From positions 1 to 64,000 of the IMG/VR virus record IMGVR_UViG_3300014205_000002: 64,000 nt of DNA. One strand, written 5' to 3'. Positions within the stretch are counted from its first letter, which is position 1, and each line of letters begins with the position of its first letter. The notes under the pieces were generated by a model. It had not been told where the DNA came from. It searched no databases and saw nothing but the letters and a program-made list of their open reading frames with translations. The stretch comes from a virus. Its lineage: Duplodnaviria > Caudoviricetes. The position numbers and the translations under genes are program-made. Below are positions 7,108 to 62,919 of this stretch, piece after piece.

Positions 7108-9305
7108 TGGATACCCGGCATGTCTTTGAGCGCTCGTTTGACGCGCTGATGCAGAACCCGCGCGCGAACGACTCCGCGATCCGTCGCCAGGTGCTGGGGG
7201 AGTTCGAGGACATCCCCCAGCCCGCTAAGCCGCCCGAGGGCAAGGCCGACTACCCCAAGGCGATCGGCCCTGATGAGGCGCTGCATCGCGTCATGGCGAG
7301 CAAGAACCATCAGCACAACCTTTCTGCGATGCCGCCCGCCGAGCGCAAACAGTGGATGGACATGTACGCCCACCGCTGGCTGGAAGGTCGGCACTTCACC
7401 CTGGTCGACCTGGCCCTGGAAAAGCTCGACCGCAAGGCCTTCGACCTCGACGAGCAGAAGGTCCAGAGCCTGGTCGACAAGCCGCCGAAGGACGACGGCA
7501 ACTTCCCGATCGTCAGCGGCTTTGATAAGAACGAGGGAGCCGAGCACGTCATCCTGGATGGCAACCACCGGGCCGAGGCGGCGATTCGCCGGGGAGACAA
7601 GACCATGCGCGCCTATGTTCGCGACGACCTGATCGAGGGCGGTGGCGCGTTTGCCGAGACCTGCGCCAAGGTCGCCTTCGACTTCCTCAAGGGCCTGGTG
7701 CCCGCCGCCAAAGCCCACATCAACTACATCGCCGCGACTGCTGGCGAGGCCCGCGCCCATGAGGTCGCGGACCTTGCGCACCACATCGTTGAGGGGCGCA
7801 AGAACCGCAAGGACAAGCGGGTTAAACTCAACGACGTCCTGGCCGTCCACCGCCAGGCCATGCTGAGCAAGAACGCCGCGCTCCTGCAAGCCGAGGACCT
7901 CGACGCCATGGCCGGCAAGGCTGACCTCCTGCGAGAGGTCGAGGCAATTCATGGGGGATGCGTGGCGGACCATGCCGCAGAGCTGGCGGGCGATGGCCCA
8001 GTCACGCGCGAGCATATCCAGACGGCCTGCTTCGCGAAAGCCGATGCGCCCAAGCCTGGCGAGAAGGGCTACTCGGACTACTTCTCCCGCGTCCTGAAAG
8101 AGAAGCTCGGCCAGAGCGAGAAGACAGCCGCGCTATTTGATCTGCCCGGCGTGGCTGAAGAACGCCAGCACCATGCTGACGACATTCGCCGCCATGCCGA
8201 AGCTTTAATCGCCTCTGATGCCAAATTCAAGGGGCACACGGCCGAGGTGGACGCAAACCCAGTGCGCATCCTCGGACTGTGGCACAGTCGCAAGCCGCGC
8301 TACTTTATTGACGTCAACATCAAGGATCCGGAGGGGAAGGCCATAACCGCCCCCGCTGGCGACGTCATTCAGCCAGGCCTTTCACTCACAATCGATCCCG
8401 ACAAGAGCTATCTGGATGGACTTAGCATTGCACCAGGGTTTCATGGGCGCGGCTATGGTGCGGCGTTGATGGGGATCTCCGAACGTCTGGCTTCCGATTC
8501 GGGCACCAAGCGCATCGGCGCGCATTCCGTCAACCCGATCTCCGCGCGCATGGCGCTCGGGGCTGGCTACCAGGTAGTAGGTCGACCAGAGGTGAAGGCA
8601 GAGCACATTCATATCGAGCGTGACAAGGGCCAAGAGTGGGACCTGGAGCGTCCAAACACCAGTCGCGGGCCGATTGGCCATGTGAGCGAAGGCCGCGAGA
8701 ATCCGTTCTCCTTGCTCACGCCCATCCGGAACCACTGGGGGCGCACGGCGGAAAAAGCGGCCGCAGACGACAGCGAGCGCCCCACCGTGTTCCTCGGCGG
8801 CAAGGTCTCTGGGCCTGACGGCAACTGGCGCAAGTCGATCGCCGACGGCATCCGCGACGCCGGCTGGGATGCCATCGACCCGAAGAAGAAGACCTGGACG
8901 CCCGAGAAGGACATCTACAAGGAGGTCGAGGGCATGCTCAATGCTGACCTGGTGGTATTCCATGAAGGCGGTACCTTCACGAAGCGTGAGAAAAAGCTCC
9001 TAGACGCTGTGGGCAAGCCCTACACCGAGGTCGATACCCCCGACGAGGTGCGCGAGCTCGTGGGCGACCCAGCGACCGCAGGCATGCTCGCCAAGGCCGC
9101 CTTCAATGCATCCTTGATCGTCGATCCGATCCGAAAGTTTACGCCCTCGGTATTCCCCCAAGACGCATTCGGTCACCCCATCACCAGCCTGCGCGCGGCC
9201 GCCGCCGGGGACAGCGCCATGCTGATCCTGCTGCGGCGCATCCGCGAGAACCCTGCCGACTTCCATGGCATCATCGCCCTGAACGCGATGCTCGCCGCCC
9301 GCTAA
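7107..9305 (+). CDS. polyvalent protein: ParB/Srx-like + GNAT acetyltransferase + nucleoside 2-deoxyribosyltransferase-like domains
   Basis: ILDGNHRAEAA (ParB-like); IAPGFHGRGYGAALM (GNAT motif A); VFLGG...WR...IDP...EVEGMLNADLVVF (NDT-like). Confidence 0.75.
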   Translation: MDTRHVFERSFDALMQNPRANDSAIRRQVLGEFEDIPQPAKPPEGKADYPKAIGPDEALHRVMASKNHQHNLSAMPPAERKQWMDMYAHRWLEGRHFTLVDLALEKLDRKAFDLDEQKVQSLVDKPPKDDGNFPIVSGFDKNEGAEHVILDGNHRAEAAIRRGDKTMRAYVRDDLIEGGGAFAETCAKVAFDFLKGLVPAAKAHINYIAATAGEARAHEVADLAHHIVEGRKNRKDKRVKLNDVLAVHRQAMLSKNAALLQAEDLDAMAGKADLLREVEAIHGGCVADHAAELAGDGPVTREHIQTACFAKADAPKPGEKGYSDYFSRVLKEKLGQSEKTAALFDLPGVAEERQHHADDIRRHAEALIASDAKFKGHTAEVDANPVRILGLWHSRKPRYFIDVNIKDPEGKAITAPAGDVIQPGLSLTIDPDKSYLDGLSIAPGFHGRGYGAALMGISERLASDSGTKRIGAHSVNPISARMALGAGYQVVGRPEVKAEHIHIERDKGQEWDLERPNTSRGPIGHVSEGRENPFSLLTPIRNHWGRTAEKAAADDSERPTVFLGGKVSGPDGNWRKSIADGIRDAGWDAIDPKKKTWTPEKDIYKEVEGMLNADLVVFHEGGTFTKREKKLLDAVGKPYTEVDTPDEVRELVGDPATAGMLAKAAFNASLIVDPIRKFTPSVFPQDAFGHPITSLRAAAAGDSAMLILLRRIRENPADFHGIIALNAMLAAR

Positions 9306-9315
9306 GGAGTAGCCC

Positions 9316-9888
9316 GTGAACCAGCACATCTCGCCCTACCGGGCCTTCTTGAACCACGCGATGGCCGGCCACAACATGGCCCCGCCGACGGTGCCGTTCG
9401 ACCACCAAGAGTCGGTCAGCAACCAGGACAGCACGGCGATCGCCAGGCTCCTGCCCGTCGTCGACGACGTCATCCTCGCGGGCGGGCGTATCGCCAAAGG
9501 ACTCGTGAAGATGAAGTTCGCCAAGGTCGACGAAGCGAGTGGGCTTCCAGAGGTGGTCGCGCACCCTTACCGGCATGCGCTGCCAAAAGAGCTGATCGGT
9601 GGTGCGGCTGCGACTCTCGTTGGCGCGACGCCTTTCGGTATGTGGGCGGGCCGGGCCATGGCCGCGCGCGATCACTCGCGTGCGATCCGTGGAATGGGCG
9701 ACAAGGCGAACGATCTGCCGACGAGCGTTCGCCACCCCTACGCCGTCCAGACCGCGCTCGACTTTGCGGTGACACCGTTGCTCTCAGGCCTCGCCGCATC
9801 CGTGATTCACCGCGGCGAGAAGCAGGACTATGTCGCCGATCAGCAGCGGCTGGAGAAGTCCAAGGCTGCCTACCAGCTGTACGCATAA
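9316..9888 (+). CDS. glycine-zipper protein, paralogue of 52738-53241
   Basis: AAGGAG RBS and GTG start; ISPYRAF tag-like segment; HPY...GGAAA...HSRAI...VRHPY. Confidence 0.65.
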   Translation: MNQHISPYRAFLNHAMAGHNMAPPTVPFDHQESVSNQDSTAIARLLPVVDDVILAGGRIAKGLVKMKFAKVDEASGLPEVVAHPYRHALPKELIGGAAATLVGATPFGMWAGRAMAARDHSRAIRGMGDKANDLPTSVRHPYAVQTALDFAVTPLLSGLAASVIHRGEKQDYVADQQRLEKSKAAYQLYA

Positions 9889-9897
9889 GGAGCCCCG

Positions 9898-12800
9898 ATG
9901 CGCACACCCCAAGAAGTCCACGCGGCCGTCATCGAGCAGGTCAAGGAAGGCCTCAAGACCGCCTTCCCGATCGGCACGGTGAACCGCCAGCTCCACCTCG
10001 TGGATGTCCATGTCGACGAGCAGGCGTCACACGACGACTACGAGAGCCAGAAGATCGCAATCATGGGCAGCAAGACCTGGGGCGCGCCGATGTCAGCGAC
10101 CGTCGAGCTGCGCGACGCCGCGGGCCGGGCCATCGACCAGAAGAAGGTGCGCCTGGGCCTGCTGCCCACCGTGACCAACCGGCACACCTACATCGTCAAC
10201 GGCAAGGAGTACCAGGTCAGCCACCAGCAGCGGCTGCGCTCGGGCGTCTACACGAAGCTCAACCGCCTGGGTGAGCCCGTCGCCGACTTCAACCTCGCCA
10301 AGGGCCGCAACTTCTCGGTGGTGCTTGATCCGGCGTCGAGCCGCTTCGACCTCAAGTACGCGAACACCCACGTGCCGCTCTATCCCGTCGTCAAGCATGT
10401 CTTCGGCTACCCCAGTCTGGGGATGGGTGACGAGAGCTTCAATACGCCCATGAGCGAGGAGCAAGAGTTCACGGCGCTGCGCACGCTGCATGCGGAGGTG
10501 CTCGCGGGCAAGCCCGTGCCCGAGGAGAACGGCGCGCTGGTGAGCAGCCTCAAGGAGGCCTTCGGTAAGACCATGCTCGACAGCGCGATCACAGAGAAGA
10601 CGCTGGGCACGGGCCACACCATCGTAAACGGCGACGCCCTGATCGACGCCGCGCACCAGGTGCTGCGCATCCATCGCGGCGAGGTCGCGCCGACGACCAA
10701 GGAACAGATGGCCTACGCGGAGATCCATGGCGTCGAGGATCTCCTGCGCGAGCGCCTGGAGAAGAACCGCTTCGCGATCGCGGGCAAGGTCCGGCGCACG
10801 CTCGATCGCGCGCAGAAGGTCGGCGAGGTCAACCTCCAGTCGGCGGTCCAGCCTCTGCTGACGGGCTTCTTCACGCAGAGCGCGCTCTCCAGCAACCCCG
10901 TTCAGGTGAACCCGTTGGAGATGCGCGAAAACGCCTACAAGATCACCCGCCTTGGCGAGGGCGGCATCTCCGACACCAACGCCATTCCCACAGAGGTCCG
11001 AAACGTCCACCCGAGCCAGGCGGGATTCATCGACCCTGTGAGGACGCCCGACAACGCCCGGGCAGGCATCGACGTGCGCGCAGGCCTGGGCGTCACCAAG
11101 CGTGGCAAGCAGCTCGTCGCGACGGTCGTGGACGCGCGCACCGGCGACAAGGTGCAGCACACGCCCGTGGAGTTGTTCGACAAGGTCGTCGCCCATGACG
11201 CCGAGTCCGCCGAGGATGGTCGCATCCGGGCGATTCACCGCGGCAAGCTCGTGAGCGTGCGCCCCGACCAGGTGGACTTCCACATCCCCACCGAGCAGAT
11301 GTTCACGGTCTCGACCGCCATGGTGCCGTTCGTGCCGAACTCGCATGCGCACCGCGTCGCCATGGGCGCGAAGATGTTGGGCCAGGCGCTCTCGCTGACG
11401 GATCGCGAAGCCCCGATCGTCGACACCAATCACTCGGACGAGAGCCTCAAGGGCATCCTGCCGGTGGCTCCGGTTGCGGGCCTGGTCCGGGCGATCGCCC
11501 AGGGGCACCTGGTGATCGCCGGCGAAGACGGCAAAGACCACCGGGTCAACTTCCCCCACGAGTTCCCGCTCAACGGCGGCAGCTACCTGCACACCGATCT
11601 GCATGTGAAGGCGGGCGACCAGGTGACGGCGGGCCAGGTGCTCGGCGACAGCAACTTCTCGAAGGATGGCCGCATCGCGCTCGGCAAGAACCTGCACGTG
11701 GCCTACATCCCATACAAGGGTCTGAACTACGAGGACGGCCTGGTCTTGACCGAGTCTGGCGCGCGCAAGCTCACGAGCAACCACCTCCACACCGAGGAGT
11801 TGGAACTCGACGGGCGGACCATGCACGACATCGAGAAGTACCGCGCGCACTTCCCCGGCGCGCTCGGCCGCGACCAGGTGGCGAAGCTCGACGCCAAGGG
11901 CGTGGTTCGCGTCGGACAGACCCTGTCGGCGGGCGACCCGATCATGGCGGTACTGCGCCAGCGGCCGCAGAACCCTGAGCAGCTCGTGCTCGGCAAGGTC
12001 CATAAGTCGCTCGCGGAGCCCTACAAGGACGACTCAATCACCTGGGACAAGACCTACGACGGCCGGGTCACCGCGGTCCACCATGACGGATCCAACATCA
12101 AGGTCACCGTCGAGGCTCAGGCACCCGCCCAGGTCGGCGACAAGCTCTGTGGCCGTTATGGCAACAAGGGGGTTGTGACAGCAATCATCTCCGACGACCA
12201 CGCGCCCCACACCGCGGACGGCAAGGTGCCGGATCTGCTGATTAACCCGGCCGGCCTGATCTCGCGCATGAACAACGGCCAAATCTACGAGGTCGTGGTC
12301 GGTCGCGCGCTCCAGAAGCTTGGCATCCCCAGCCGGCGCTTCGATCAGTTCGGCAAGGGTGACACGCATGAGCAGGTCACGCGCCTGGTCGAAGCCGCGG
12401 GATCGGGTGACGGCGACGAGATGTTCGACCCCGACACCAAGCGATCGATCGGTCACGTCATGAACGGCCCGATGTATGTGCTCAAGCTGTTTAAGCAGGC
12501 CGAGAGCGGGTTCAGCGCGCGCGCCGGCGGCGAGTACGATCTGGATCTCAGGCCGGCCAAGGGCGGCACCGAGGGTGCGAAGTCGGTGGGCCACCTCGAC
12601 TTTTTCGGCCTGCTCGCGCACGGTTCCAAGAACCTGCTGCGGGAGGCGGCAACCTACAAGGCTGAGCGGAACCCCGAGGTGGTGGCCCAGATGTGGCGAG
12701 GGGCTCCTTTGCCTCCACCTAAGCCCACCTTCGCTTACCGCAAGTTCGAGGCGATGCTCAAGGGCATGGGCGTGAACGTCGCCAAGGACGGCTCCAAGAT

Positions 12801-15765
12801 GACGCTCCTGCCGATGACCGACAAGGATGTCCTGGCCGTTTCGTCTGGGGCCATCACCAAGCCGTTGATGGTAAACGCGAAGCCCGACCCTGTCACCAAC
12901 CTGCCATTCCGACCCGAGGAGGGCGGCATCTTCGACCCAGTCGCCACCGGCGGCCTGGTCGGCAATCGCTGGAGCCACATCCCTCTGGCCGAGGGCGTGG
13001 TCAACCCCATGTTCGCGAAGCCCGCGCGCACGATCCTCGGCCTGGGCAAACAGGAGTTCGAGGAGATGCTCGCCCGCGAGGGCGCGCATGGGATCGGCCA
13101 GCGCCTCGACGCGATCGACCCCGCCGCTCGGATCGGCGTGCTCCAGCGCGAGCTCGTGAACACCAATGCGGTCGCGCGCAGGGACACGATCCACAAGCAG
13201 ATCAAGTACCTGTCGGCCCTGGAGCGCAACGGCCTGCGACCGAAGGAAGCCTACATCCTGAACCATCTGCCGGTGATCCCGCCGTCGATGCGTCCAGTCT
13301 ACCCGGACGCCAACACGGGCGACCTCGTGACCTCCGATGCGAACCAGCTCTACCAGCACTTGCTGATGATCAACGAGCAGCTCGCGAAGCACACCGCCGA
13401 CGGCGATCCGGACATGGTGCGCGAGCTGCGCCAGGGCCTGCACGAGGCGGTCTCGCGCGTGCAAGGCCTGGACGCGACGACGGCGGCCGCCTCGGGCGAA
13501 CGTGAACCCCAGGGCTTCCTGCGGGTGATCGCCGGCGCGCGAGCGAAGGATGGCTTCTTCCAGAGCAAGCTGATCTCCCGCCGGCAGGACATCGCTGGCC
13601 GCGGCGTCGCCGTGCCGAGCCCCACGCTCGGGCTCGACCAGATCGGGCTGCCCGAGGACATGGCCTGGAAGCTCTACCGCAACCACGCGATGGGTGAACT
13701 CTCGCGCGCGGGCGTGCCGCTCAAGGATGCAGCCAAGGACGTCGCCGAGCGGACCGATCGCGCGAAGAAGGCCTTGGAGGCGTCGATGAATGCGAGCCCC
13801 GCGATCATGACGCGCGCACCCAGCCTGCATCGCTTCAACGTCCAGGCGTTCAAGCCGCAGCTGGTCGCGGGCAAGTCGATCGAGGTCAACACCCTGATCC
13901 ACAAGGGATTTAACCTTGACCACGATGGTGATTGCTGTCTGGGAACAGTGGTTATAGCGCGCAAATCGGCCGATTTTGAGTTGACAAATTCCACATTTAA
14001 TCGCACACTGAATTCGTCGCCCAAAATAATGGCCGGGGGTGTCGCGATGTTGCTCAAAGAATCTTATGTGCCGGTGGTGAGTGGCTACACGTACGAGGTT
14101 GTCGATCTCGCTGACTTCCCACGCCTGGAAGACACCAAACGCACTAAGGAGAACGGCAACTCGTTCTACGACGTGCCGGAGGGCATCCATGTGTTCGCCT
14201 ACGACCCCGCCGATGGCCGAATTAAGCTGTTCCCGGTAACGGAGTACAGCGTTCACCCCAACCTCCAAATGGTGAAGGTGACCACCCGTTCTGGTCGCAC
14301 GGTGGATTGTTCCGAGGATCACTCGCTCTATGGCATCGATCCCCGGACGCTCGTCGTTCAAAAAATGAAGCCGCCTGAGTCATTGGGCTGCCTGATTCCT
14401 CGCCCGCGCAAGGTGACGACGACTGAGTCCGTGAGCACGATCCCGATGGGCACGAAGCACAACGCGAACGAAGGTCACGCCGGTCGTTACGTGATCGCCG
14501 ATCACCTGGAGCTAGATCTTGAGTCTGGCTGGTTTATCGGCGCTATGGCGGGGGATGGATACGCTTCACGGGAGGGTGGCCGGCTTGGTTTCTGTAACGT
14601 CGCGCAGCCCACTTTCGATCGCATCAAGGAGTTCCTGCTCATTCGTGTCTGCGCTGGGTTGTCCTTCTCGGAGCATGACAACCCCCACGACTTCGACGGC
14701 CATGCATGTTTCAGTCGCAAATTGCACTGGACGAGCAAGTCGCTCAATGCCTTCGTGGCGGAGCAGATCGGCCAGGACTCCGAGAACAAGCACCTTCCGA
14801 CTTACTGGATCGCCTCACCCGAGTCATTCCGCTGGGGCCTATTGGCTGGCCTGCTCGATACGGACGGCCGCGTGATGAAGACCGTCGCCCAAGGTGGCCG
14901 GAAAATAAACTGGCACGTGGGCTACGACTCGAAGAGCGAGCAACTCATTGACGAGGTATTGATGCTCTGCTCGACGCTCGGCGTTCGCGCTACCAAACGC
15001 GCCTATAAGAACAAGAAGGGCCTAGCCTACTATCAGGCAGCCATGTCGGTGACGGACGTCCGCACGTACGCGAATAAGATCCTGCTTTCGACGCCCGCCA
15101 AGGCCGGGGCCCTCTTGGAGATGGTGGCTGCATCGCCGGAGAACCAGTCCACGCATGACACGATCCCGGTGCCGCGCGAGCTGGCCCTCGCGCTCAGGAA
15201 GACCTTCGGTGCTCCGCGGGATGCCGACGGTCGCCACAAGAGTCTCTACATCTTAATCGACAAGGCTACGAAGAAGGGCGGCATGAACCGCGACACAGCC
15301 AAGGAAGTCATCCGTCGCATCGGCGATGCTCGTGTGGGTGAGATGCCGCTCGGTGCGCGTTGGCTCACGATCGTCAACACCGACGAGACGCTCTGGGACG
15401 AGGTCGTCAAGATCGAAAAGAGCGAGTCCGGCGTGACCGCCTACGATATGACCGTTCCAGGCTCCTGGACTTTTATGCTCGCCAACGGCCTGGTTGTCCA
15501 GGATTGCGTAACCATCCATGTGCCCGTCACGCCCGAGGGCGCGAGCGACGCGTTCCAGATGTTGCCCTCGAACAACCTGTACGCGACCCTGAATGGCGCG
15601 CCCGTGCATGTGCCGACGCAGGAGACTATTATGGGTCTCTACAAGGTGACGAGCGTTGGCCACAAGCCTCCTGTCGCCAAGTTCGCTTCCCGCGCGGATG
15701 CGGTCGCCGCCTATCAGCGTGGCGAAGTGCGCGTCCACGACCCGATCGAGATCCTGGAGGGCTGA
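9898..15765 (+). CDS. rpoBC: DNA-directed RNA polymerase, beta subunit fused to the N-terminal half of beta', intein-containing
   Basis: beta motifs GDKLCGRYGNKG, NPAGLISRMNNGQ, GPMYVLKL; beta' motifs LPVIPPSMRP, TSDANQLY, RAPSLHR, catalytic NLDHDGD. Confidence 0.95.
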   Translation: MRTPQEVHAAVIEQVKEGLKTAFPIGTVNRQLHLVDVHVDEQASHDDYESQKIAIMGSKTWGAPMSATVELRDAAGRAIDQKKVRLGLLPTVTNRHTYIVNGKEYQVSHQQRLRSGVYTKLNRLGEPVADFNLAKGRNFSVVLDPASSRFDLKYANTHVPLYPVVKHVFGYPSLGMGDESFNTPMSEEQEFTALRTLHAEVLAGKPVPEENGALVSSLKEAFGKTMLDSAITEKTLGTGHTIVNGDALIDAAHQVLRIHRGEVAPTTKEQMAYAEIHGVEDLLRERLEKNRFAIAGKVRRTLDRAQKVGEVNLQSAVQPLLTGFFTQSALSSNPVQVNPLEMRENAYKITRLGEGGISDTNAIPTEVRNVHPSQAGFIDPVRTPDNARAGIDVRAGLGVTKRGKQLVATVVDARTGDKVQHTPVELFDKVVAHDAESAEDGRIRAIHRGKLVSVRPDQVDFHIPTEQMFTVSTAMVPFVPNSHAHRVAMGAKMLGQALSLTDREAPIVDTNHSDESLKGILPVAPVAGLVRAIAQGHLVIAGEDGKDHRVNFPHEFPLNGGSYLHTDLHVKAGDQVTAGQVLGDSNFSKDGRIALGKNLHVAYIPYKGLNYEDGLVLTESGARKLTSNHLHTEELELDGRTMHDIEKYRAHFPGALGRDQVAKLDAKGVVRVGQTLSAGDPIMAVLRQRPQNPEQLVLGKVHKSLAEPYKDDSITWDKTYDGRVTAVHHDGSNIKVTVEAQAPAQVGDKLCGRYGNKGVVTAIISDDHAPHTADGKVPDLLINPAGLISRMNNGQIYEVVVGRALQKLGIPSRRFDQFGKGDTHEQVTRLVEAAGSGDGDEMFDPDTKRSIGHVMNGPMYVLKLFKQAESGFSARAGGEYDLDLRPAKGGTEGAKSVGHLDFFGLLAHGSKNLLREAATYKAERNPEVVAQMWRGAPLPPPKPTFAYRKFEAMLKGMGVNVAKDGSKMTLLPMTDKDVLAVSSGAITKPLMVNAKPDPVTNLPFRPEEGGIFDPVATGGLVGNRWSHIPLAEGVVNPMFAKPARTILGLGKQEFEEMLAREGAHGIGQRLDAIDPAARIGVLQRELVNTNAVARRDTIHKQIKYLSALERNGLRPKEAYILNHLPVIPPSMRPVYPDANTGDLVTSDANQLYQHLLMINEQLAKHTADGDPDMVRELRQGLHEAVSRVQGLDATTAAASGEREPQGFLRVIAGARAKDGFFQSKLISRRQDIAGRGVAVPSPTLGLDQIGLPEDMAWKLYRNHAMGELSRAGVPLKDAAKDVAERTDRAKKALEASMNASPAIMTRAPSLHRFNVQAFKPQLVAGKSIEVNTLIHKGFNLDHDGDCCLGTVVIARKSADFELTNSTFNRTLNSSPKIMAGGVAMLLKESYVPVVSGYTYEVVDLADFPRLEDTKRTKENGNSFYDVPEGIHVFAYDPADGRIKLFPVTEYSVHPNLQMVKVTTRSGRTVDCSEDHSLYGIDPRTLVVQKMKPPESLGCLIPRPRKVTTTESVSTIPMGTKHNANEGHAGRYVIADHLELDLESGWFIGAMAGDGYASREGGRLGFCNVAQPTFDRIKEFLLIRVCAGLSFSEHDNPHDFDGHACFSRKLHWTSKSLNAFVAEQIGQDSENKHLPTYWIASPESFRWGLLAGLLDTDGRVMKTVAQGGRKINWHVGYDSKSEQLIDEVLMLCSTLGVRATKRAYKNKKGLAYYQAAMSVTDVRTYANKILLSTPAKAGALLEMVAASPENQSTHDTIPVPRELALALRKTFGAPRDADGRHKSLYILIDKATKKGGMNRDTAKEVIRRIGDARVGEMPLGARWLTIVNTDETLWDEVVKIEKSESGVTAYDMTVPGSWTFMLANGLVVQDCVTIHVPVTPEGASDAFQMLPSNNLYATLNGAPVHVPTQETIMGLYKVTSVGHKPPVAKFASRADAVAAYQRGEVRVHDPIEILEG
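13933..15504 (+). mobile_element. intein (524 aa) with LAGLIDADG homing endonuclease
   Basis: Starts with Cys after DHDGD; block B CSEDH; GAMAGDG and LAGLLDTDG; block F/G YDMTV...LANGLVVQD then Cys; removal gives DHDGD-CVTIHVP, matching cellular DFDGD-QMAVHVP. Confidence 0.9.
13981..14009 (+). promoter_or_regulatory. possible sigma70-type promoter inside the intein
   Basis: TTGACA-17 nt-CACACT in an AT-rich insert, upstream of GGGGGTG and in-frame ATG 14047. Confidence 0.35.
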
Positions 15766-16001
15766 TGCTCCATAACCTGTTTTCCGTGCCCCAGGCCGTC
15801 AGCACCGCGCAGGCGCGCGGGCAGTCGCACACCGACGGCATCCTGACCTGCTCGGGCTGTAGTCTGGTCAGTCCAAAGGTCCAGATCCCCACCGGCAGTC
15901 TGCCCGAGAGCGAGTGGAAGGGGTACGCCCTGCGCTTTACGGGATGGATCGACGACTGTCCGGCGTGCGAGGCCAAGAAGGCTGCTGGCCGGGCGCTATA
16001 A
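15765..16001 (+). CDS. small zinc-finger protein
   Basis: TGATG coupling to the RNAP stop; CSGC...CPAC. Confidence 0.6.
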   Translation: MLHNLFSVPQAVSTAQARGQSHTDGILTCSGCSLVSPKVQIPTGSLPESEWKGYALRFTGWIDDCPACEAKKAAGRAL

Positions 16002-16003
16002 TA
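15997..16003 (+). promoter_or_regulatory. TATAATA phage promoter
   Basis: GCTATAATACCC about 30 nt upstream of ATG 16034. Confidence 0.7.
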
Positions 16004-16033
16004 CCCTTGCCCGTTCACGAGGAGCTACCGCTT

Positions 16034-16780
16034 ATGCGTCCCTACGACCTGTTCATCAAGGAAGCCGCGGGCGGCATGGTGCCCTTCGACGGGGTCTTCG
16101 CCTTCCAGCAGCTGCGCAAGATGCGCGAGGGTGTCGGCGCGGCGCGGGGCATTCACCAGGGTCGCGTGCTGCGCGCGGGCGGCGTTGGTGCGGTCGTCGG
16201 CGGCGTCGGAGCAGCGGGCGCGGGTGCTGTCCACGATCACCACCAGGGCCAGGAGGTCACGCTTGGTCAGACCGCCTTGCGGGCCGCCGAGGGCGCGTTC
16301 ATCGGTGGCGCAGCCGGCGCGGGCGGCAAGGCCGTGCTCGATCTCGGGCGTCAGGGGGCTGCGGCGGGCGCGCGAATGGCGGCGGACGCCGTGGAGGCAA
16401 CCAAACGAACAGCCAGACCCCACAGCTACGTGATGCCCACGGGGCACGCTATCGAAGTCGTGAAGGTGGATACCGATGCCGCCCATCAGGCGTTCCACAA
16501 CATCCGGACGAACCCCGACATCGCGGCGATCGGCGACTTCGAGGGCCGGTACGGGCGCAAGGCGATGGCCCAGACGCTCCACCCCGACCACCTGGCGCAC
16601 GCAGGCATCGACGAGGCCGACCAGACGCGCATCAACCGCGCCTACCAGCTCTACAACGGCATAGGCGGAAACGCTGGCTCCTCGCTCAGCAAGGAGGTCG
16701 AAAGCAGGTTCGATGCGGCCTCTGGGGCGGCCCGCCTGTTTGCGGTGAAGATGGACCAGGCCCAAGAAGGCCTGTTCTAG
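16034..16780 (+). CDS. glycine-zipper putative internal head protein
   Basis: GAGGAG RBS; starts MRPYDLFIKEAA; G/A-rich hairpin. Confidence 0.7.
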   Translation: MRPYDLFIKEAAGGMVPFDGVFAFQQLRKMREGVGAARGIHQGRVLRAGGVGAVVGGVGAAGAGAVHDHHQGQEVTLGQTALRAAEGAFIGGAAGAGGKAVLDLGRQGAAAGARMAADAVEATKRTARPHSYVMPTGHAIEVVKVDTDAAHQAFHNIRTNPDIAAIGDFEGRYGRKAMAQTLHPDHLAHAGIDEADQTRINRAYQLYNGIGGNAGSSLSKEVESRFDAASGAARLFAVKMDQAQEGLF

Positions 16781-16781
16781 G

Positions 16782-18350
16782 ATGCGGGCCTGCGATCTGT
16801 TCTACGAGTTGTCGAAAGCCGGCGCTCTCAAAGAAGACTTCAAGCTGCGGCCGCACCAGCAAGTGGCGATCGACAAGCTGCTCGCCAACAAGGGCTCGCT
16901 ACTGATCGCCCATGGGCCGGGCACGGGTAAGACACCGACGAGCTCCGCGGCGATCGAGGTGATGCGCGAGAAGGGCATGGCCGGCAAGGCACTGATCGTC
17001 ACGCCCGCGAACTTGCGCGATAACTTCCTCGACGGCGGCATCCACAAGTTTACGACCAGCAAGGGCATCCGGCTTGGCCCCAAGGGCGAGGCCGGCTCGC
17101 ACCACATCGACCAGGCGACGATTCCGGACGCCGACAGCTATGTGGTTTCGGTCGAGATGTTCCGCAAGGATCCGCACAAGTACCTCGATCGCACTGGGGC
17201 CGACACCATCGTCTGGGACGAGGTCCACAAGCTGCGCGACACCGGCTCCAGTAACTACGCTGCGGCGATGGCGGTCCGCTCGCGCGTGAAGAACTTCGTG
17301 GGCCTCACGGGCACGCCAGTCATGAATCACCCGCGCGACATCGTACCGATCCTCGACGTGATCACCAACAAGAGCCATGGCCTTTCCGGAAAGGGCTCCG
17401 ATACCTTCGACAAGCGCTACATCGGCAGCGAGGTCAAGCGCGTCGGCCCGCTCGCCATGTTCGGCATCGGCCGCAAGGAAAAGCACACAGTCTTCCATCG
17501 CCAGCACGAACTCAAGGCGCTGCTCGGCAATGTCGTCCATCACGTCTCGACCGAGGATGTAGCTGCGGACATGCCCAAGAAGAAGGTTGTCGACGTCGAC
17601 GTGGAAATGAGCAAGCCTCAGCACAAGCTCTACAACTTCGCGATGCAGAAGGTCGATCCGATCACGCGCTGGAAGATCCGAAACAACTTACCAGTCAACA
17701 CGCGCGAAGCACAGCACGTCTTTTCGATGATCACCCAGGCCAGGCAGGCATCAAACTCCCTGCATGTGCTCGACAGCACCTACGACGCAGCGCGCTCGGC
17801 CGAGGACACCCCCAAGAGCCGGCGCGTGCTCGACGATGTCCATGAGCACCTGGGCAAGAACCCCACGCACAAGGCGATCGTCTACACCAACATGGTGCGA
17901 GGTGGCGTCGACCAGATGGTCGCCGGCCTCAAGTCGCGTGGGCACGATCCCGGTGTATTCATCGGCGCTCAGCAGATCAGCAAGAAGGAGCGCGCCCAGC
18001 ACGTCGAGGACTACCTCGCCGGCCGCAAGCGCGTGATGGTGATCAACACGGCGGGCACCGAGGGACTAAACCTGCCGGGGACGACGCTGCATGCGACCCT
18101 CGACGGCCATTTCAACCCTGCGGTGATGGAGCAAGCCGAGGCCCGTGGGATCCGTGCGGGCTCGCCGGTCAAGGAGGTCGAGGTTCGGCGCTACCGCAGC
18201 CTCGTACCGAAACCATTCGGTGTGCCCTTCCTGCCTCGCGAGACCTCGACCGATCAGTGGATCCACGGTATCGCCGACCGCAAGGAAACGCTCAACAAGA
18301 AGTTCATGGGGCTCATGAAGTCGGCGGCGCTATCCGGTGTCCGCCAGTAG
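16782..18350 (+). CDS. SNF2-family helicase/ATPase
   Basis: LRPHQ, HGPGTGKT, DEVH, LTGTPVMN, AGTEGLNL, FNPAVMEQAEARGIR. Confidence 0.9.
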   Translation: MRACDLFYELSKAGALKEDFKLRPHQQVAIDKLLANKGSLLIAHGPGTGKTPTSSAAIEVMREKGMAGKALIVTPANLRDNFLDGGIHKFTTSKGIRLGPKGEAGSHHIDQATIPDADSYVVSVEMFRKDPHKYLDRTGADTIVWDEVHKLRDTGSSNYAAAMAVRSRVKNFVGLTGTPVMNHPRDIVPILDVITNKSHGLSGKGSDTFDKRYIGSEVKRVGPLAMFGIGRKEKHTVFHRQHELKALLGNVVHHVSTEDVAADMPKKKVVDVDVEMSKPQHKLYNFAMQKVDPITRWKIRNNLPVNTREAQHVFSMITQARQASNSLHVLDSTYDAARSAEDTPKSRRVLDDVHEHLGKNPTHKAIVYTNMVRGGVDQMVAGLKSRGHDPGVFIGAQQISKKERAQHVEDYLAGRKRVMVINTAGTEGLNLPGTTLHATLDGHFNPAVMEQAEARGIRAGSPVKEVEVRRYRSLVPKPFGVPFLPRETSTDQWIHGIADRKETLNKKFMGLMKSAALSGVRQ

Positions 18351-18361
18351 GCGAGCTAGCT

Positions 18362-18481
18362 ATGAACCGGCGTCAGACGTTCGCGAAACTCATTGGCGTC
18401 CTGCGTCGACTGGCCGCCAGGTTGCGCGGGCGTGGCGGCGGGGCCACCGGCGGCATCATCAGCAACAACGGAGCATCGTAA
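18362..18481 (+). CDS. 39-aa basic peptide ending TGGIISNNGAS
   Basis: ATG 18362; its TAA overlaps the next ATG; C-terminus shared with the next ORF. Confidence 0.55.
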   Translation: MNRRQTFAKLIGVLRRLAARLRGRGGGATGGIISNNGAS

Positions 18482-18636
18482 TGAACAAGCAAGCTTTGCT
18501 TACTGGAGAGGCCGCGGAGGCCGTCGCCAAGCTCAAGGCTCTCAAGGTCGGCCAGATCGCCGCATCGGCTGCGCGCAAGATCCTGGCTCCGCGAGCGGGT
18601 ACGGGCGGCGTCATCAGCAACAACGGGGCCTCATAA
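18446..18636 (+). repeat. 36-nt imperfect direct repeat (18446-18481 and 18601-18636)
   Basis: accggcggcatcatcagcaacaacggagcatcgtaa vs acgggcggcgtcatcagcaacaacggggcctcataa. Confidence 0.8.
18481..18636 (+). CDS. 51-aa peptide ending TGGVISNNGAS
   Basis: TAATG coupling; same C-terminal motif encoded with different synonymous codons. Confidence 0.6.
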   Translation: MNKQALLTGEAAEAVAKLKALKVGQIAASAARKILAPRAGTGGVISNNGAS

Positions 18637-18639
18637 CCC

Positions 18640-19017
18640 ATGGCGAACCCTGTCTACGCCCAGTCCCGTGAACGCGATCAGCACCGCTGCCAGTTCCCGC
18701 TCGATGCCGATCACCGCGGCGACAGCTGGCGCAAGTGCGGCTCGAACAAGGAGCTGGCATCCCACCATCGCCAGATTCGCGGACAGGGCGGGCAAGACAC
18801 CCTCGACAACCTGATCTCGCTCTGTAAGCACCATCACGACTGGTGCCATACGCACCCCGAGCAGGCGGCCCAGCTCGGCCTGATCGTCATGATGGTAGAC
18901 GGACGCTACGACACGAGCCGCCACCACTGGATGGACGACCAGATCCCCGAGGACGGCCACTTCGCCGACGAGGACCAGGTGTTCGCCGGGCAGGATCCGC
19001 CGCCGCTGGTATGGTAA
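18640..19017 (+). CDS. HNH endonuclease
   Basis: RDQHRCQ...CG...HHRQIRGQGG...NLISLCKHHH. Confidence 0.85.
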   Translation: MANPVYAQSRERDQHRCQFPLDADHRGDSWRKCGSNKELASHHRQIRGQGGQDTLDNLISLCKHHHDWCHTHPEQAAQLGLIVMMVDGRYDTSRHHWMDDQIPEDGHFADEDQVFAGQDPPPLVW

Positions 19018-19019
19018 TC

Positions 19020-19030
19020 TGGTCAGACCA
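19020..19030. promoter_or_regulatory. palindromic TGGTC-A-GACCA operator-like site
   Basis: Perfect palindrome in the gap before the AGGAG RBS of 19050. Confidence 0.45.
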
Positions 19031-19049
19031 AGCGACCAGGAGACCACTC

Positions 19050-19733
19050 ATGCCCATACCCCCGTTGCCTCCGCTGCTGATGCCCGCACCAGAGCCGCTG
19101 TTCATCCCCGATCCGGAGCCGGATGCACGGTTGGAGCTTCCGCCCGTCCGTTCCATGCAGCCGGTGCTGATCGAGGCGGGGTTCTGGCTACAGGGGCAGT
19201 TCTCCGACGAGCAGTTGCTCAGTCAGATCGTCTATCTGCTCAAGCACAACCGCAAGCGCATCGGCCTGGTCCAGCAGGCCATGAGTGGCGAGCTCGCCTG
19301 TGACGACGGTGCGCTGCTCGCGCGCCAGCTCTCCTGGCTCGACTCCAACCTGTACTTCATCGGCCAGCTCGTGAGCGATGCGAACATGCTGCTGGATCTG
19401 GCCGAGAACCACTTCCGGGTGCCCTCGGGGCGCAGCGTTCTATGCACCGACGCCGAGGGTCGGCTGATTCCCGCCGGCGGCAAGGGTCGGGCGGTCGACC
19501 CCGAGAACGTCGACCCCGAGAAGGACAAGAAGTTTGAGCCGAAGTGGCAGACCCTGACCGACCACGATCGCAAGGGCGAATTGGCGGCGAAGTGCGTGCC
19601 GTTTCGACGGCTTCGCGACGAGTACCAGGCACTCGCGACCGCGATGGAGAGCCGGATGTACCTCGGCAAGGATGTCTTGCGCGACATCTCCTCGCGCGTG
19701 CGCGCCGCCGGCATGGGAGATCAGCGCCATTGA
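19050..19733 (+). CDS. hypothetical protein, Pro-rich N-terminus
   Basis: AGGAG RBS; helical composition. Confidence 0.65.
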   Translation: MPIPPLPPLLMPAPEPLFIPDPEPDARLELPPVRSMQPVLIEAGFWLQGQFSDEQLLSQIVYLLKHNRKRIGLVQQAMSGELACDDGALLARQLSWLDSNLYFIGQLVSDANMLLDLAENHFRVPSGRSVLCTDAEGRLIPAGGKGRAVDPENVDPEKDKKFEPKWQTLTDHDRKGELAAKCVPFRRLRDEYQALATAMESRMYLGKDVLRDISSRVRAAGMGDQRH

Positions 19734-19816
19734 GCGATCCGGGAAGCCTTTGCGAAACGCCATATCATAACTCCAGGGGTGGCCCAATCGTAGATGGGGA
19801 CGAGGCCTTGGAGAAA

Positions 19817-20068
19817 ATGGCGACCAAGTGTTACGCATACATCCTGGAAGGCATGACCGAGGCCGACCGAATCAGGCTTCACGAGATGATTCTCGCGGAG
19901 AAGCTGATCGCGAAGGCCGCGAGTCTCCAGACGTCCCGCGACAGCACTGGCCGCATGGTCCATAAGATGGAGGTGGTCGTCGACACAAAGACCACGCTCC
20001 AGTACATCGTGGACACCTTCTACACGGCCACGGATCGGGCGCTCGCGCCGGTGGAGTACCGCGGATGA
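19817..20068 (+). CDS. hypothetical protein
   Basis: GGAG RBS; ATGA coupling to the beta' C-terminal gene. Confidence 0.55.
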   Translation: MATKCYAYILEGMTEADRIRLHEMILAEKLIAKAASLQTSRDSTGRMVHKMEVVVDTKTTLQYIVDTFYTATDRALAPVEYRG

Positions 20069-21915
20069 TCACGACCGTCGGCGAGATCATGCTGCATGAG
20101 GCCTTGCCCGAGAACGTTCGCCCGACGGGCCCGATGAACAAGGGCGGCCTCTCCAAGCTGCTGCGTGCGGTCGCCGATCTGCATCCGAAGGACTACGGCA
20201 CGATCGTCGGGGCCATCAAGACGATCGGCAACCACGCGGCCTACGAGTCCGGCACCTCCTTTACCCTGGCCGACTTCAAGCCGCATGCAGCCGCGCGTGA
20301 CGCCGCCTTCGCCGCCCATCAGCCCGAACTCGACGCCCTGCATGCCGTGACCGATGCGACGCCGGCGCTCCAGCACGATCCCGCCCACCAGGGCCGGGTC
20401 GCGAGCGTCCACGCGCGCATCGAGGAGCACGTCAACCAGGGCGTCGCCCAGCGCATCCACGACGCCCCCAACGACTTGACGGCCTGGGTTGCCTCGGGAG
20501 CCCGTGGCGACGCCGCCACGGCCCGCCAGATGGTCGCGATGGCAGGCATGAACATCGACGTGACCAACAAGCTCGTACCCGGCATCGCCCGGCGCTCGTT
20601 TTCCGAGGGCCTCAGCCCGATCGACTTCCACATTCACGCCAACGGCGCGCGCCGGGGCGTCGTCAACACCTACACGAGCGTGCGCGAGCCCGGAGCCTTC
20701 GCCAAGGAGTTGAACACGCTGACGATGGACATGGTCGTGACCCAGGCCGACTGCGGCACCACCCAGGGCGTCGTCCTGCCGCCGGGGCACCCCGACGCCC
20801 TGGATCGCTGCCTCGCGCAAGACGTGCCAGGCATCGCGCACCGCAACGACATCTGGACGCCGGCGCTGGCCGAGGCCGCAAAGAAGCTGAACGGCACCAA
20901 GCCCGCCTTCCGCTCGCCGCTACACTGCCAGGCCCACGAGGGCGTCTGCGCGCGCTGCTACGGCCTGAATGAGGCCGGGCGCATGCCGCCCGTGGGCGAG
21001 CATGTGGGGCTGCGCGCAAGCCAGGCGCTGACCGAGCCCTTGACTCAGCTCGCATTGAATACCAAGCACACCGGCGGCGTCGTGGGCGCGGGCAAGAGTC
21101 CCTTCCAGCAGATCATGCAGGTCATGCACGCGCCGAAGAACTTCTCGGGCGTGGCGGTGCTTGCCCAGCGCGATGGCCCGGTCAAAGCGATCGAAGCTGC
21201 GGCCGCCGGCGGCTCACACGTGACGATCGGCGACGTGCGTCACTACGTCGCACCCGATCGCCAGCTCCAGGTGAAACTGGGTGACGTATTGCGCCGCGGA
21301 TCCGTACTGACGGACGGCACGCCGCACCCGGCCGAGGTCGTGCAGCACATGGGCATGGAGGCCGGCCGGGCCTACTTCGCGGGCAAACTCCAGCAGCTGT
21401 ACGGCGACGCCGGAATCCGCGGGCACGGCAAGATCTTCGAGACGATCGCCCGCTCCGTACTGAACCTCGGCCAGGTCGTGCATGCGGGCGACAGCGAGTT
21501 GATGCCCGGCGAGGTCGTGAACTGGAACTCCGTGGCCGCCCAGGTGGACGCCGCGCGCATTCAGACGGTGCCGATCGCCCAGGCCCAGGGGCGCATTCTC
21601 GCCTCGCCCGCAGGCAATCTCGACCGCTACCAGGTGGTCTCACCGAAGGCTGCGGGCGACCTCCAGCGCAAGGGCGTGAATCAGGTGCATGTCTACGCGC
21701 CCGACGCCCTGGTGATCAAACCGATGATGCTTGGCACCGAGCGTGCGGCCATGCACAAGGGCGACTGGATGGCCTCGCTCGGTTACCGCTTCATCGGCAG
21801 CCAGTTCAAGGAGAACGTCGCGGCCGCGGCCAGCGCAGACATCCACAGCTGGAACCCAATTGCGGCTTATGCCTACGGCGCTGAGTTCGGCCGCGGAGCC
21901 GAGGGGAGGTACTGA
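20065..21915 (+). CDS. rpoC: DNA-directed RNA polymerase beta' subunit, C-terminal part
   Basis: TTVGEIML, SGARG, SFSEGLS...GARRG (bridge helix region), DCGT, RSPLHC...VCARCYG, QALTEPLTQLALNTKHTGG (trigger loop). Confidence 0.92.
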   Translation: MITTVGEIMLHEALPENVRPTGPMNKGGLSKLLRAVADLHPKDYGTIVGAIKTIGNHAAYESGTSFTLADFKPHAAARDAAFAAHQPELDALHAVTDATPALQHDPAHQGRVASVHARIEEHVNQGVAQRIHDAPNDLTAWVASGARGDAATARQMVAMAGMNIDVTNKLVPGIARRSFSEGLSPIDFHIHANGARRGVVNTYTSVREPGAFAKELNTLTMDMVVTQADCGTTQGVVLPPGHPDALDRCLAQDVPGIAHRNDIWTPALAEAAKKLNGTKPAFRSPLHCQAHEGVCARCYGLNEAGRMPPVGEHVGLRASQALTEPLTQLALNTKHTGGVVGAGKSPFQQIMQVMHAPKNFSGVAVLAQRDGPVKAIEAAAAGGSHVTIGDVRHYVAPDRQLQVKLGDVLRRGSVLTDGTPHPAEVVQHMGMEAGRAYFAGKLQQLYGDAGIRGHGKIFETIARSVLNLGQVVHAGDSELMPGEVVNWNSVAAQVDAARIQTVPIAQAQGRILASPAGNLDRYQVVSPKAAGDLQRKGVNQVHVYAPDALVIKPMMLGTERAAMHKGDWMASLGYRFIGSQFKENVAAAASADIHSWNPIAAYAYGAEFGRGAEGRY

Positions 21916-22673
21916 TGTCGGAGTCGAACGCGATCATCGCCAACCAGGGCCTGTCGATCCCCGAGAACCCCGATGCGTTCGGGCCGCGGATCGACTCCGA
22001 GTTCGCCCAGAGCGGCCCGCGCAATGTGGTCCAGCGCGCGGCCGACGTCAAGTCGACGAGCTTTGAGACGCTCGCGATCTACTTCAAGATCGCCGCCATG
22101 AGCATCATTCAGACCCACCTGGAAGACGACGAGATCTTCCGCTTTATCCCCGGAAACCCCAAGGACTCCGGCTGCGTGATCACGACGGCCTACAACCGCA
22201 AGACCATTGAGGCCCGTGACCACAAGCCCCTGATCGCGGTGATCGGCCAGGGCATGCAGCCGCAGGAGGTGGTGCTGCGCAACGCCATCAAGGGCGCTGA
22301 GAACGTTGGTCCGATGCGTGAGGAGCGCGGCGTGGTCTGCACGCTGGGCGTGCGGGTGGCGATCATCCACCACAACCCCAACATCACGGACATGCTGGGC
22401 GGCTTCATTCAGGCCTGGCTCGCCGCCGACTCCCAGCTCATGCGCGAGATGTTCAAGTTCCAGAAGATCCACATGCCTGCGCTCTCGCCGACCGGGGCCG
22501 TCGAGGAGTTGCCCGACGTATTCAGCTGCAACGTGACCCTGAATGCCGAGGCGATCCCGCGGTGGATCCAGACCAAGGATCAGCGCATCATTCGGCGCAT
22601 CTACGGCACGATCAACGCGAACATGGGCGCGCTGGTGCAGGAGTTCATCTTGCCGACAGACGCCCCCGGCTGA
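21915..22673 (+). CDS. hypothetical protein, possibly tail completion/terminator-like
   Basis: Coupled to the rpoC fragment; alpha/beta pattern only. Confidence 0.5.
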   Translation: MSESNAIIANQGLSIPENPDAFGPRIDSEFAQSGPRNVVQRAADVKSTSFETLAIYFKIAAMSIIQTHLEDDEIFRFIPGNPKDSGCVITTAYNRKTIEARDHKPLIAVIGQGMQPQEVVLRNAIKGAENVGPMREERGVVCTLGVRVAIIHHNPNITDMLGGFIQAWLAADSQLMREMFKFQKIHMPALSPTGAVEELPDVFSCNVTLNAEAIPRWIQTKDQRIIRRIYGTINANMGALVQEFILPTDAPG

Positions 22674-61492: not shown

Positions 61493-61960
61493 ATGCCAGA
61501 GAACGGTTCACCGATGACGCCCGAGGAGGCCAGCGCGCACCTCACGGCCGTGCTGTGCGCGGCGCGCGAAGAGGCCCCTGCGGCCTGGCGCGACATCTGC
61601 GTCTGCTTCGAGGCGGAGTTGAACGGGCTCGCCAAGCGCAAGATCTGGCTGGGTGGGTTCGTGATCGAATTGTTCGCGGATGCCATCCGGGTGCAGGTCC
61701 TCAGCGTGCTAGGCAAGAAGCCCGAAGGCTACAACCATCGCGGTATCTGGGCGGTCCTCTACACCCTGGCGATGCCGCGCGTGCTGCCGGTCCAGGCGGA
61801 TCCGTTCCGCATTTCAAGCATCCGCATCGCCCACGGCGAGGACCCCCAAGTTTCCTACGATCGCGGCTTCAAGATAGGCCTGCCTTTGAGCCTGACCGAG
61901 GCCTACGATCCGGATGCGTTCAAGAAGCTCGTGCAGACCCCGGAAGCCAGCTCTACATGA
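61493..61960 (+). CDS. hypothetical protein
   Basis: ATGA coupling to the sigma gene; start uncertain (61493 or 61514). Confidence 0.55.
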   Translation: MPENGSPMTPEEASAHLTAVLCAAREEAPAAWRDICVCFEAELNGLAKRKIWLGGFVIELFADAIRVQVLSVLGKKPEGYNHRGIWAVLYTLAMPRVLPVQADPFRISSIRIAHGEDPQVSYDRGFKIGLPLSLTEAYDPDAFKKLVQTPEASST

Positions 61961-62919
61961 GTGAGTGGGAGGACATGGAGGAAGCCGAAGCGCTTGAGGT
62001 GATCCTCGTGCCGGCCCGCGAAGTCGTCTTCCATGAGAAGGGCCTGAGGCTCTCGGCCAGCGAGGAGCGCGAGCTAATCCGACGCGCCCAGGCCGGCGAC
62101 AAGAAGGCGATGCAGATGCTACTGGATGCACATGCGCCCTTCGTCACGATCGTGATGCGCCAGTTCACAGTACCCTCCTGGGTGCCGCAGGAAGACATCC
62201 GCCAGGAGGGCCTATACGGCCTCATGGATGGGATCAAGCGCTTCGACCTGGTCAAGCGGAAGACGCGACTGCTCTCCTATGCCGCCTGGCGCATCCACAA
62301 GGCGCTCGTGAGCTACTTCGGCGAGATGGCCTACCCGGTCAAGATGCCATTCCCCGACGTCGTAAAATTAAAGAAGGTCATGAATCGGCTTGAGATGGGG
62401 CACTCCGCCGAGCCTGAGCTGGACGAGACCTTCGTCAACCACCAGCGACACCTGAACATGCTCTCCTTGCTCGGCGGCTGCCTGCCGCTCGGCTCGGACG
62501 GCTGCGGCGAGTACGTCTTCGGCACACCCGGTGAATCCGACACCCACGCCCATCGCTCCAGCCGCGAGTTCTCGGTGCCAGACCATGCGGACGCCGTCGT
62601 CGGCACGATGGTGATGGGGGCGATCATCGACTGCCTGCGCAAGCTGCCGCTCTCCGAAGGGTTGCTGCTCGGCCAGTACTACGGCATCTACGTCGCGAGT
62701 CAGCCCGTACCGATCAAGTATATCGCCGGCGAGGCCCCCAAGGCCACGGCGGACGGACGCATCGGGGCCGGCTGGAACGGATATGGAGTCCAGATCGGGG
62801 AGTCCTATAATAGTTGCAGCAAGCTCATACGGCAGGTCGAAGCGAAGTTCCGCCTGATGCTGCTGGAACACCTGGGCCGTATCTACGCCGACTACACGGG
62901 GAGAAGCCATGACGCCTGA
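61957..62919 (+). CDS. sigma70-family RNA polymerase sigma factor
   Basis: LSASEERELIRRAQAGD (region 1.2), EDIRQEGLYGLMDGIKRFD...LSYAAWRI (region 2); divergent region 4. Confidence 0.85.
   Translation: MSEWEDMEEAEALEVILVPAREVVFHEKGLRLSASEERELIRRAQAGDKKAMQMLLDAHAPFVTIVMRQFTVPSWVPQEDIRQEGLYGLMDGIKRFDLVKRKTRLLSYAAWRIHKALVSYFGEMAYPVKMPFPDVVKLKKVMNRLEMGHSAEPELDETFVNHQRHLNMLSLLGGCLPLGSDGCGEYVFGTPGESDTHAHRSSREFSVPDHADAVVGTMVMGAIIDCLRKLPLSEGLLLGQYYGIYVASQPVPIKYIAGEAPKATADGRIGAGWNGYGVQIGESYNSCSKLIRQVEAKFRLMLLEHLGRIYADYTGRSHDA
62806..62812 (+). promoter_or_regulatory. TATAATA promoter inside the sigma gene
   Basis: CCTATAATAG about 96 nt before 62909. Confidence 0.55.

Follow-up and report, generated by a model that had tools for sequence, protein, structure and literature searches.

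How does an RNA polymerase (RNAP) come to be encoded by two phage genes, one carrying beta together with part of beta' and the other the remainder of beta', and does such an enzyme need an alpha subunit? The question is raised by a locus in the window, by which we mean the whole stretch of 64,000 nucleotides analyzed here, the first 64 kb of IMG/VR record IMGVR_UViG_3300014205_000002. The source genome is that of a complete uncultured phage (208,264 bp, terminal repeats, 64% GC). Two open reading frames (ORFs), hereafter chain A (1955 aa) and chain B (616 aa), make up the only RNAP of the complete genome, in which a single beta barrel match was found. We consider it fairly probable that they form the single two-barrel RNAP of an Arash-like myophage lineage, and that this enzyme was fused, then re-cut, and is used with a phage sigma factor. 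The layout is real, conserved and apparently undescribed; no description or test of it was found in the literature covered, which did not extend to subscription journals.

Architecture of the two chains

The Pfam domains of chain A follow each other in the order Rpb2_3, Rpb2_6, Rpb1_1, Rpb1_2, intein/LAGLIDADG and Rpb1_3. An earlier note, made from the sequence, had described one ORF running from beta into beta' through the catalytic loop and ending about 85 aa past an intein, and the domains and coordinates agree with this, the exact figure being 86 aa. Chain B has the domains Rpb1_4 and Rpb1_5 and begins at the TTVG strand; its match with Streptomyces beta' sets in at residue 661 (E 2.6e-47). 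The bridge helix, second Zn site and trigger loop previously assigned to it are borne out by these two domains, four Zn-binding Cys and the trigger-loop His. The chains are 4,299 nt apart with eight ORFs between them, also as described. Both the beta' barrel with DxDGD and the beta barrel with its two catalytic Lys are present, and the best alignment blocks with bacterial RNAP have 30-41% identity. The three Asp and the Gly of beta' DxDGD, beta K1065 and K1073, and the trigger-loop H936 are invariant across the lineage.

The enzyme is compact. Missing from beta' are the N-terminal Zn domain, SI3 and the tail, and from beta the inserts near 241-330, 961-1050 and 1141-1170. The Zn domain is absent in the window and in all 88 lineage rows, except for two Cys in L145. 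Its loss was not part of the earlier note, and neither were the two sigma genes of the window treated below.

The catalytic motif reads NLDHDGD instead of NADFDGD, as had been noticed. Its first four residues vary widely among the split forms (His occupies the fourth place in 4 of 55), so NLDHDGD is not special and represents ordinary lineage drift. The first residue of the intein directly behind the third catalytic Asp is Cys, its last two are Gln-Asp, and Cys follows, which agrees with the criteria for LAGLIDADG inteins and predicts splicing. Its GC content at third codon positions (GC3) is 0.74, versus 0.89 for the surrounding RNAP gene. Related inteins are found directly after the catalytic DxDGD in the distant lineage members L004, L080 and L106; that of the window ends with Gln-Asp, not His-Asn. 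Because of the lower GC3 and the same site in distant relatives, the intein appears to be a recent homing arrival at a place where splicing is compulsory. Only the catalytic-site intein and the His in the motif are specific to the genome of the window.

Chain A ends at about residue 557 of E. coli/Salmonella beta' and chain B starts at about 569. In the single-chain relatives two strands are joined here by a short turn with Gly; in the split forms the first strand of the hairpin closes chain A, and the second opens chain B. From DxDGD to the end of chain A there are 82-91 residues in most split forms, with a few tails of up to 132. Given that the strands are divided in this way, the two chains most likely form the hairpin jointly in trans. 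In two single-chain relatives (L075, L172) the entire hairpin segment used as the cut site in split forms is missing. Chain B has a long C-terminal extension (total 1,060-1,350 aa) in L038, L039, L041, L051, L061, L111, L112 and L169, and the second Zn site cysteines are also lost in about eight split forms (L038-L041, L051, L061, L094, L169), which the counts suggest form a clade.

Relatives, phylogeny and order of events

Chain B has at least 25 relatives of about 600 aa, and profile scans revealed over 150 loci; an alignment-based profile was needed, as viral contigs scanned with a single-sequence pattern from chain B gave no matches. At least 60 distinct sequences share the split layout of the window, and in at least 33 beta and all of beta' form one chain of about 2,050-2,200 aa. 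These were counted where both halves were readable, and because the loci were found with split-form patterns (best 80 per scan), 60:33 is not a frequency. No stop was found at the beta/beta' junction in split or single-chain relatives with readable halves, and the layout is present in independent genomes spanning 32-69% GC.

The cultured members are Salmonella phage Arash and Vibrio phages D69, D148 and D181, which have the same layout, the cut at the same hairpin turn, and orthologous sigma and SNF2 genes, and fall in the same tree clade as the window. Their difference from the window lies in the catalytic-loop intein and the NLDHDGD of its chain A. Arash gp206 (1525 aa) is 34% identical to chain A and gp216 (606 aa) 27% to chain B (OQ632216). 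In the part of the Arash paper covered, these proteins are labeled simply beta and beta', with no mention there of the fusion and the cut (PMC10585845). Split and single-chain genomes share related terminases and the core sigma and thus belong to one phage lineage. The window has all of its features, i.e., the fusion of beta with the N-terminal part of beta', the loss of the Zn domain, the cut at the hairpin turn and a sigma factor like Arash gp10. In Vibrio phage D181 (L178 5617-6565) the beta part is broken by about 0.95 kb with a homing endonuclease that is absent in D69, probably a self-splicing intron. L004, L005, L029 and D181 were considered as three-chain enzymes and rejected; their covered junctions stay in frame with breaks elsewhere, which we read as mobile-element insertions or errors.

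Trees were built with FastTree (118 taxa) and with IQ-TREE under LG+C20 (44 taxa, junction columns removed), from sets without archaea, eukaryotes, cyanobacteria, duplicates, fragments and D181. The described deep-branching Caudovirales set (mReC) was represented only by size-matched stand-ins (L277-L280, Carin-5, YerA41). Bacteria formed a clade of their own, with a FastTree support of 1.0 (24 taxa) and a Shimodaira-Hasegawa-like approximate likelihood ratio test (SH-aLRT) value of 98 (7 taxa), and the window lineage fell outside it in both trees. The fused lineage was monophyletic (SH-aLRT 100) and sister to Carin-5/YerA41 (support 95) across long branches. Within it, the split forms made up one clade (FastTree 0.98, 55 taxa; SH-aLRT 92, 18 taxa) and the single-chain forms lay on earlier branches, including L145, in which two Zn-domain cysteines remain that the others have lost. 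The streamlined viral two-chain RNAP of the earlier note therefore stands, as it neither nests in a bacterial clade nor derives from an assembly artefact, the layout being shared by relatives that include cultured phages. The re-partition in one step that had been supposed gives way to fusion and later fission, as indicated by the single-chain relatives.

From the alignments and trees, it is likely that fusion into a single chain came first and was followed by one re-cut. Since the outgroups have whole beta', this requires two events rather than three, even if the two forms were sister groups. Two results pull the other way: the approximately unbiased (AU) test narrowly fails to reject single-chain monophyly (p 0.052), and the deep branches, which are short, have support values of 78-92. 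The order of events thus depends in part on parsimony. These results favor a history in which the split was ancestral and the single chains arose by later fusion, or in which a permissive loop was cut several times, as does the support of the split clade (92, below the star level of 95). The splitting of beta' after the barrel in cyanobacteria, AR9/phiKZ, YerA41 and RP13 moreover indicates that the region is prone to fission. We nevertheless regard such a history as improbable, because both trees give one split clade with single-chain forms branching earlier, beta' is intact in bacteria and most mReC-like outgroups, and the split forms examined share one turn as the cut. Far less probable is a mature single-chain enzyme re-joined from two genes that are exons or pieces, whether by RNA splicing, trans-splicing or a split intein. 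Introns and inteins do interrupt these genes in relatives (Vibrio phage D181, L004), there is an HNH gene in the gap, and some relatives have a single chain. However, across relatives chain A ends with a stop and chain B has its own Met at the equivalent place, and no intein domain is found at the end of A or the start of B. Where both chains are in one locus the gap is about 0.2-6 kb with variable gene content, in Arash with unrelated genes on both strands, and Arash gp216 was identified under its own gene at 89% coverage in the table part covered, though peptides alone cannot exclude joining. It is of negligible probability that the layout stems from faulty assembly or sequencing, or that it is a host-derived rpoBC fragment in decay. 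Such an origin has no direct support, although P0027, an apparent natural split beta' that proved to be a frameshifted bacterial contig and was excluded, shows that frameshift artefacts with a similar cut exist. The probable source run, a landfill metagenome, has one contig that covers 9000-23000 unbroken, without differences and at even depth, which is not independent evidence; the artefact is ruled out by the same layout in cultured phages and dozens of independent genomes, and the invariant catalytic residues speak against decay.

Small subunits, sigma factors and the virion

No gene for alpha or omega was matched in the complete genome in Pfam-based searches with 14 of 14 controls positive, which extends to the entire genome what had been noted for the window. 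A search of 50 related phage genomes, 22 with a completeness of 90% or more, likewise gave no alpha gene, and among the loci of relatives no alpha-like neighbor gene was found beside the RNAP genes. Where all 24 bacteria compared have beta G1215, 94-98% of the lineage has Pro. D1084 and R1216 are near-invariant in bacteria and replaced across the lineage, D1084 being mostly lost. We take G1215 and D1084 to be alpha contacts; published confirmation of alpha-contact residue numbers was not found.

An orthologue of the gp10-type sigma occurs in 19 of 19 near-complete genomes, both split and single-chain. The structural model of the 236-aa sigma of the window matches sigma-70 chains (best E 1.5e-6), and in a model of the complex its helix 41-52 lies on the beta' clamp helices with a score of 0.75, versus 0.00 for the best control. 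Among solved pairs 58 of 80 attained the mark set for this score, against 2 of 110 among mismatched pairs; at least 45% of contacts were common to the runs, and the predicted local distance difference test (pLDDT) value of the partner was at least 69. Because like cellular complexes are already solved, the model speaks for likeness and not for binding. The sigma with which the enzyme works is probably supplied by the phage itself.

In the part of the particle mass spectrometry (MS) table covered for Arash, gp206 has 3516 spectra at 100% coverage and is the most-detected protein of the preparations; gp216 has 1210 spectra (89% coverage), gp217 1148 and gp10 467. The other sigma, gp196, is not in that part (PMC10585845). 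Computed from these published counts, the four proteins have 2.0-2.4 spectra per residue, which is compatible with equal amounts.

On balance, though with somewhat less assurance than for the explanation as a whole, we favor an enzyme that is independent of alpha. Several points weigh against it or against its packaging. The lineage has kept the beta' 527-545 segment, which in bacterial enzymes lies opposite the second alpha, and a divergent alpha substitute would escape Pfam. The Arash authors warn, in the part of the paper covered, that abundant enzymes may co-purify (PMC10585845). Host alpha and omega would moreover be undetectable in the Arash MS, as the search database there consisted of phage proteins only. 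It is thus conceivable, if unlikely, that the same two-chain enzyme and sigma borrow host alpha (and omega), with only newly synthesized enzyme active or with host alpha co-packaged. In line with such borrowing, the enzyme is far closer to bacterial RNAP than the phiKZ/AR9 enzymes are, uses sigma-70 and retains the alpha-facing segment, and the omission of host proteins from the Arash proteome search leaves room for it. The replacement of G1215, D1084 and R1216 throughout the lineage argues the opposite, the beta-beta' link makes bringing the subunits together needless, and AR9-type phage enzymes are active without alpha (PMC7598289). The alpha platform has been called universal in cellular enzymes, and how phage enzymes cohere without alpha was stated to be unknown (PMC7598289).

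For the alpha-independent enzyme we propose the following history and working. In an ancestor, rpoB and rpoC would have been joined into one chain of about 2,050 aa, with the beta' N-terminal Zn domain and lineage-specific inserts shed. In one descendant clade the chain would then have been cut at the tip of a surface beta-hairpin into chain A (beta and N-terminal beta') and chain B (C-terminal beta'). The chain A intein is expected to splice itself out and restore the catalytic loop. Chain A would give both barrels, the clamp and the flap, and chain B the bridge helix and trigger loop, docking by completion of the cut hairpin in trans. The 236-aa sigma would bind the clamp helices like cellular sigma 2.2. 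The holoenzyme would probably be packaged, as reported for the Arash preparations only, and injected to begin early transcription, and the second sigma would probably redirect it later. The covalent beta-beta' link probably takes over the assembly-platform role of the alpha dimer. The RNAP activity of lineage members is itself predicted from their sequences. Among the sequencing runs listed, no RNA data set with the phage was found. More tentatively, and with slightly less than even confidence, we suggest that a widespread phage lineage has a minimal, virion-delivered, sigma-70-dependent RNAP that needs neither alpha nor omega thanks to the beta-beta' fusion and was re-cut once at a new site.

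If this is true, the enzyme, with its two or three polypeptides, would be the simplest that can still be aligned along its full length with bacterial RNAP and that still relies on a sigma-70-type factor for initiation. The lineage offers a natural series from separate subunits in the outgroups to one chain and a re-cut chain, is so close to bacterial RNAP that the two can be compared residue by residue, and includes cultured phages. With it one can test whether a covalent link replaces alpha, what the beta' Zn domain does in sigma-dependent initiation and where beta' tolerates cuts. A compact polymerase of two or three genes is also a possible tool.

Neighboring genes and comparison with known systems

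Seven of the eight ORFs in the gap came from the gene caller, and a 39-codon ORF (18362-18481) was read from the sequence (Table 1). The latter and the next ORF (18481-18636) are in tandem on the plus strand, encode 39 and 51 aa with a basic N-terminal part, and both end with GG[IV]ISNNGAS; no other copies of GGxISNNGAS peptides were found in the rest of the genome or in the loci of relatives. In some relatives other genes lie between the RNAP genes, namely a response-regulator/GGDEF gene in L014 (7767-8669) and L020 (7364-8284) and a ribonucleotide reductase in L001 and L018. Just upstream of the chain A gene, 7107-9305 (+) encodes a 732-aa multi-domain protein with GNAT and nucleoside deoxyribosyltransferase-like domains. 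A 252-aa gene (21915-22673, +) overlaps the chain B stop, a position kept in close relatives.

Two neighbors were considered as alpha substitutes and rejected. The product of 21915-22673 resembles virion/tail-terminator clusters (Atlas lead under 0.9) and is conserved in close relatives only. That of 19050-19733 (+; 227 aa) has a UvsY-like cluster lead (Atlas) and lies between the chains in close relatives only.

Table 1 Features of the RNAP locus and associated genes, in window positions
Feature	Position	Strand	Remarks
Core sigma-70-like factor, 236 aa	4937..5647	+	orthologue of Arash gp10; likely enzyme partner
Chain A gene	9898..15765	+	compact beta (aa 1 to ~965) in frame with N-terminal part of beta' (to E. 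coli beta' ~557); both catalytic barrels; 1431 aa without intein
Beta/beta' junction	12775..12810 (about aa 960-971)	+	short linker, no stop, alike in every lineage member seen
Deletion site of beta' N-terminal Zn-binding domain (E. coli C70/72/85/88)	12940..12965	+	
Catalytic loop NLDHDGD	13912..13932, aa 1339-1345	+	three Mg-binding Asp intact
Intein, 524 aa, LAGLIDADG endonuclease	13933..15504, aa 1346-1869	+	directly behind third catalytic Asp
C-extein, 86 aa	15505..15765	+	ends on first strand of beta-hairpin completed by chain B (predicted)
Intervening block	15765..20068	+	eight ORFs: 15765-16001, 16034-16780, SNF2, 18362-18481, 18481-18636, HNH 18640-19017, 19050-19733, 19817-20068
SNF2-type ATPase	16782..18350	+	orthologue of Arash gp217; possible accessory factor
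Chain B gene	20065..21915	+	C-terminal part of beta' from E. coli ~569: funnel, bridge helix, second Zn site (C230/288/295/298), trigger loop (H335), jaw; no SI3 insert
Second sigma-70-like factor	61957..62919	+	region 2 above Pfam cut-off; possible later-stage specificity factor

Among known systems, the mReC enzymes (Weinheimer and Aylward 2020, PMC7481178) are likewise bacteria-like two-barrel RNAPs of large tailed phages outside bacteria. In the parts of that paper covered, mReC is defined by beta and beta' matches of at least 800 aa each and by NADxDGD, and the table rows covered have beta and beta' as two separate proteins (PMC7481178). By this definition the phage is not a member of that set, which the earlier note had mentioned: it differs in chain length (616 aa for chain B), in the fusion of beta, in its NLDHDGD motif and in the capsid marker, as a search of the complete genome for PF07068 gave nothing at E 1. 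The terminase matched PF05876 best (E 1.7e-8), with the mReC marker PF03237 below its cut-off. Because of the length and motif requirements, the filters of the survey would miss the lineage. In mReC-like phage enzymes beta G1215 is also replaced by Pro, but the beta' Zn domain is kept (five of six), unlike in the window lineage.

In cyanobacteria and plastids, beta' is also cut shortly after the catalytic barrel, into RpoC1 and RpoC2, and the similarity of region mentioned in the earlier note held, with a site that is near but different. Cyanobacterial RpoC2 starts near E. coli beta' 589 (PDB ranges) and chain B near 569. The cyanobacterial cut thus lies 20-30 residues further on, behind the TTxGR strand and the helix after it (E. 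coli ~585-589), leaving both on the N-terminal part, whereas here both belong to chain B. In cyanobacteria beta is separate, and alpha and omega are used. The beta' of AR9/phiKZ is reported to be cut at the cyanobacterial site (PMC7598289). YerA41 and RP13 also split beta', making the stretch after the barrel a repeated, non-identical fission zone. In YerA41 (L274 4928-8151) the two parts have 556 and 518 aa, and beta' is whole in its relative Carin-5, which points to one more fission of independent origin behind the barrel.

Bacterial beta-beta' fusions (Helicobacter, Wolbachia) have retained the whole beta', the Zn domain, alpha and omega. They and the single-chain phage enzymes have both barrels on one polypeptide, as here. 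The latter (crAss phi14:2 gp66, YonO, P23-45; PMC10770324) are separate and far more divergent, whereas the window lineage aligns end to end with the bacterial subunits. With the phiKZ/AR9 RNAPs the enzyme shares the absence of alpha and omega, a beta' cut after the barrel, a linked SNF2 helicase and, probably, a virion-packaged form (PMC7598289, PMC7824862). Those phages have two enzymes of 4-5 chains with a split beta and no recognizable sigma, whereas the genome of the window has one enzyme of two chains with a whole, fused beta and two sigma-70-like factors. By analogy, its strategy appears to be that of the phiKZ/AR9 virion enzymes, and its working that of a bacterial sigma holoenzyme minus the small subunits.

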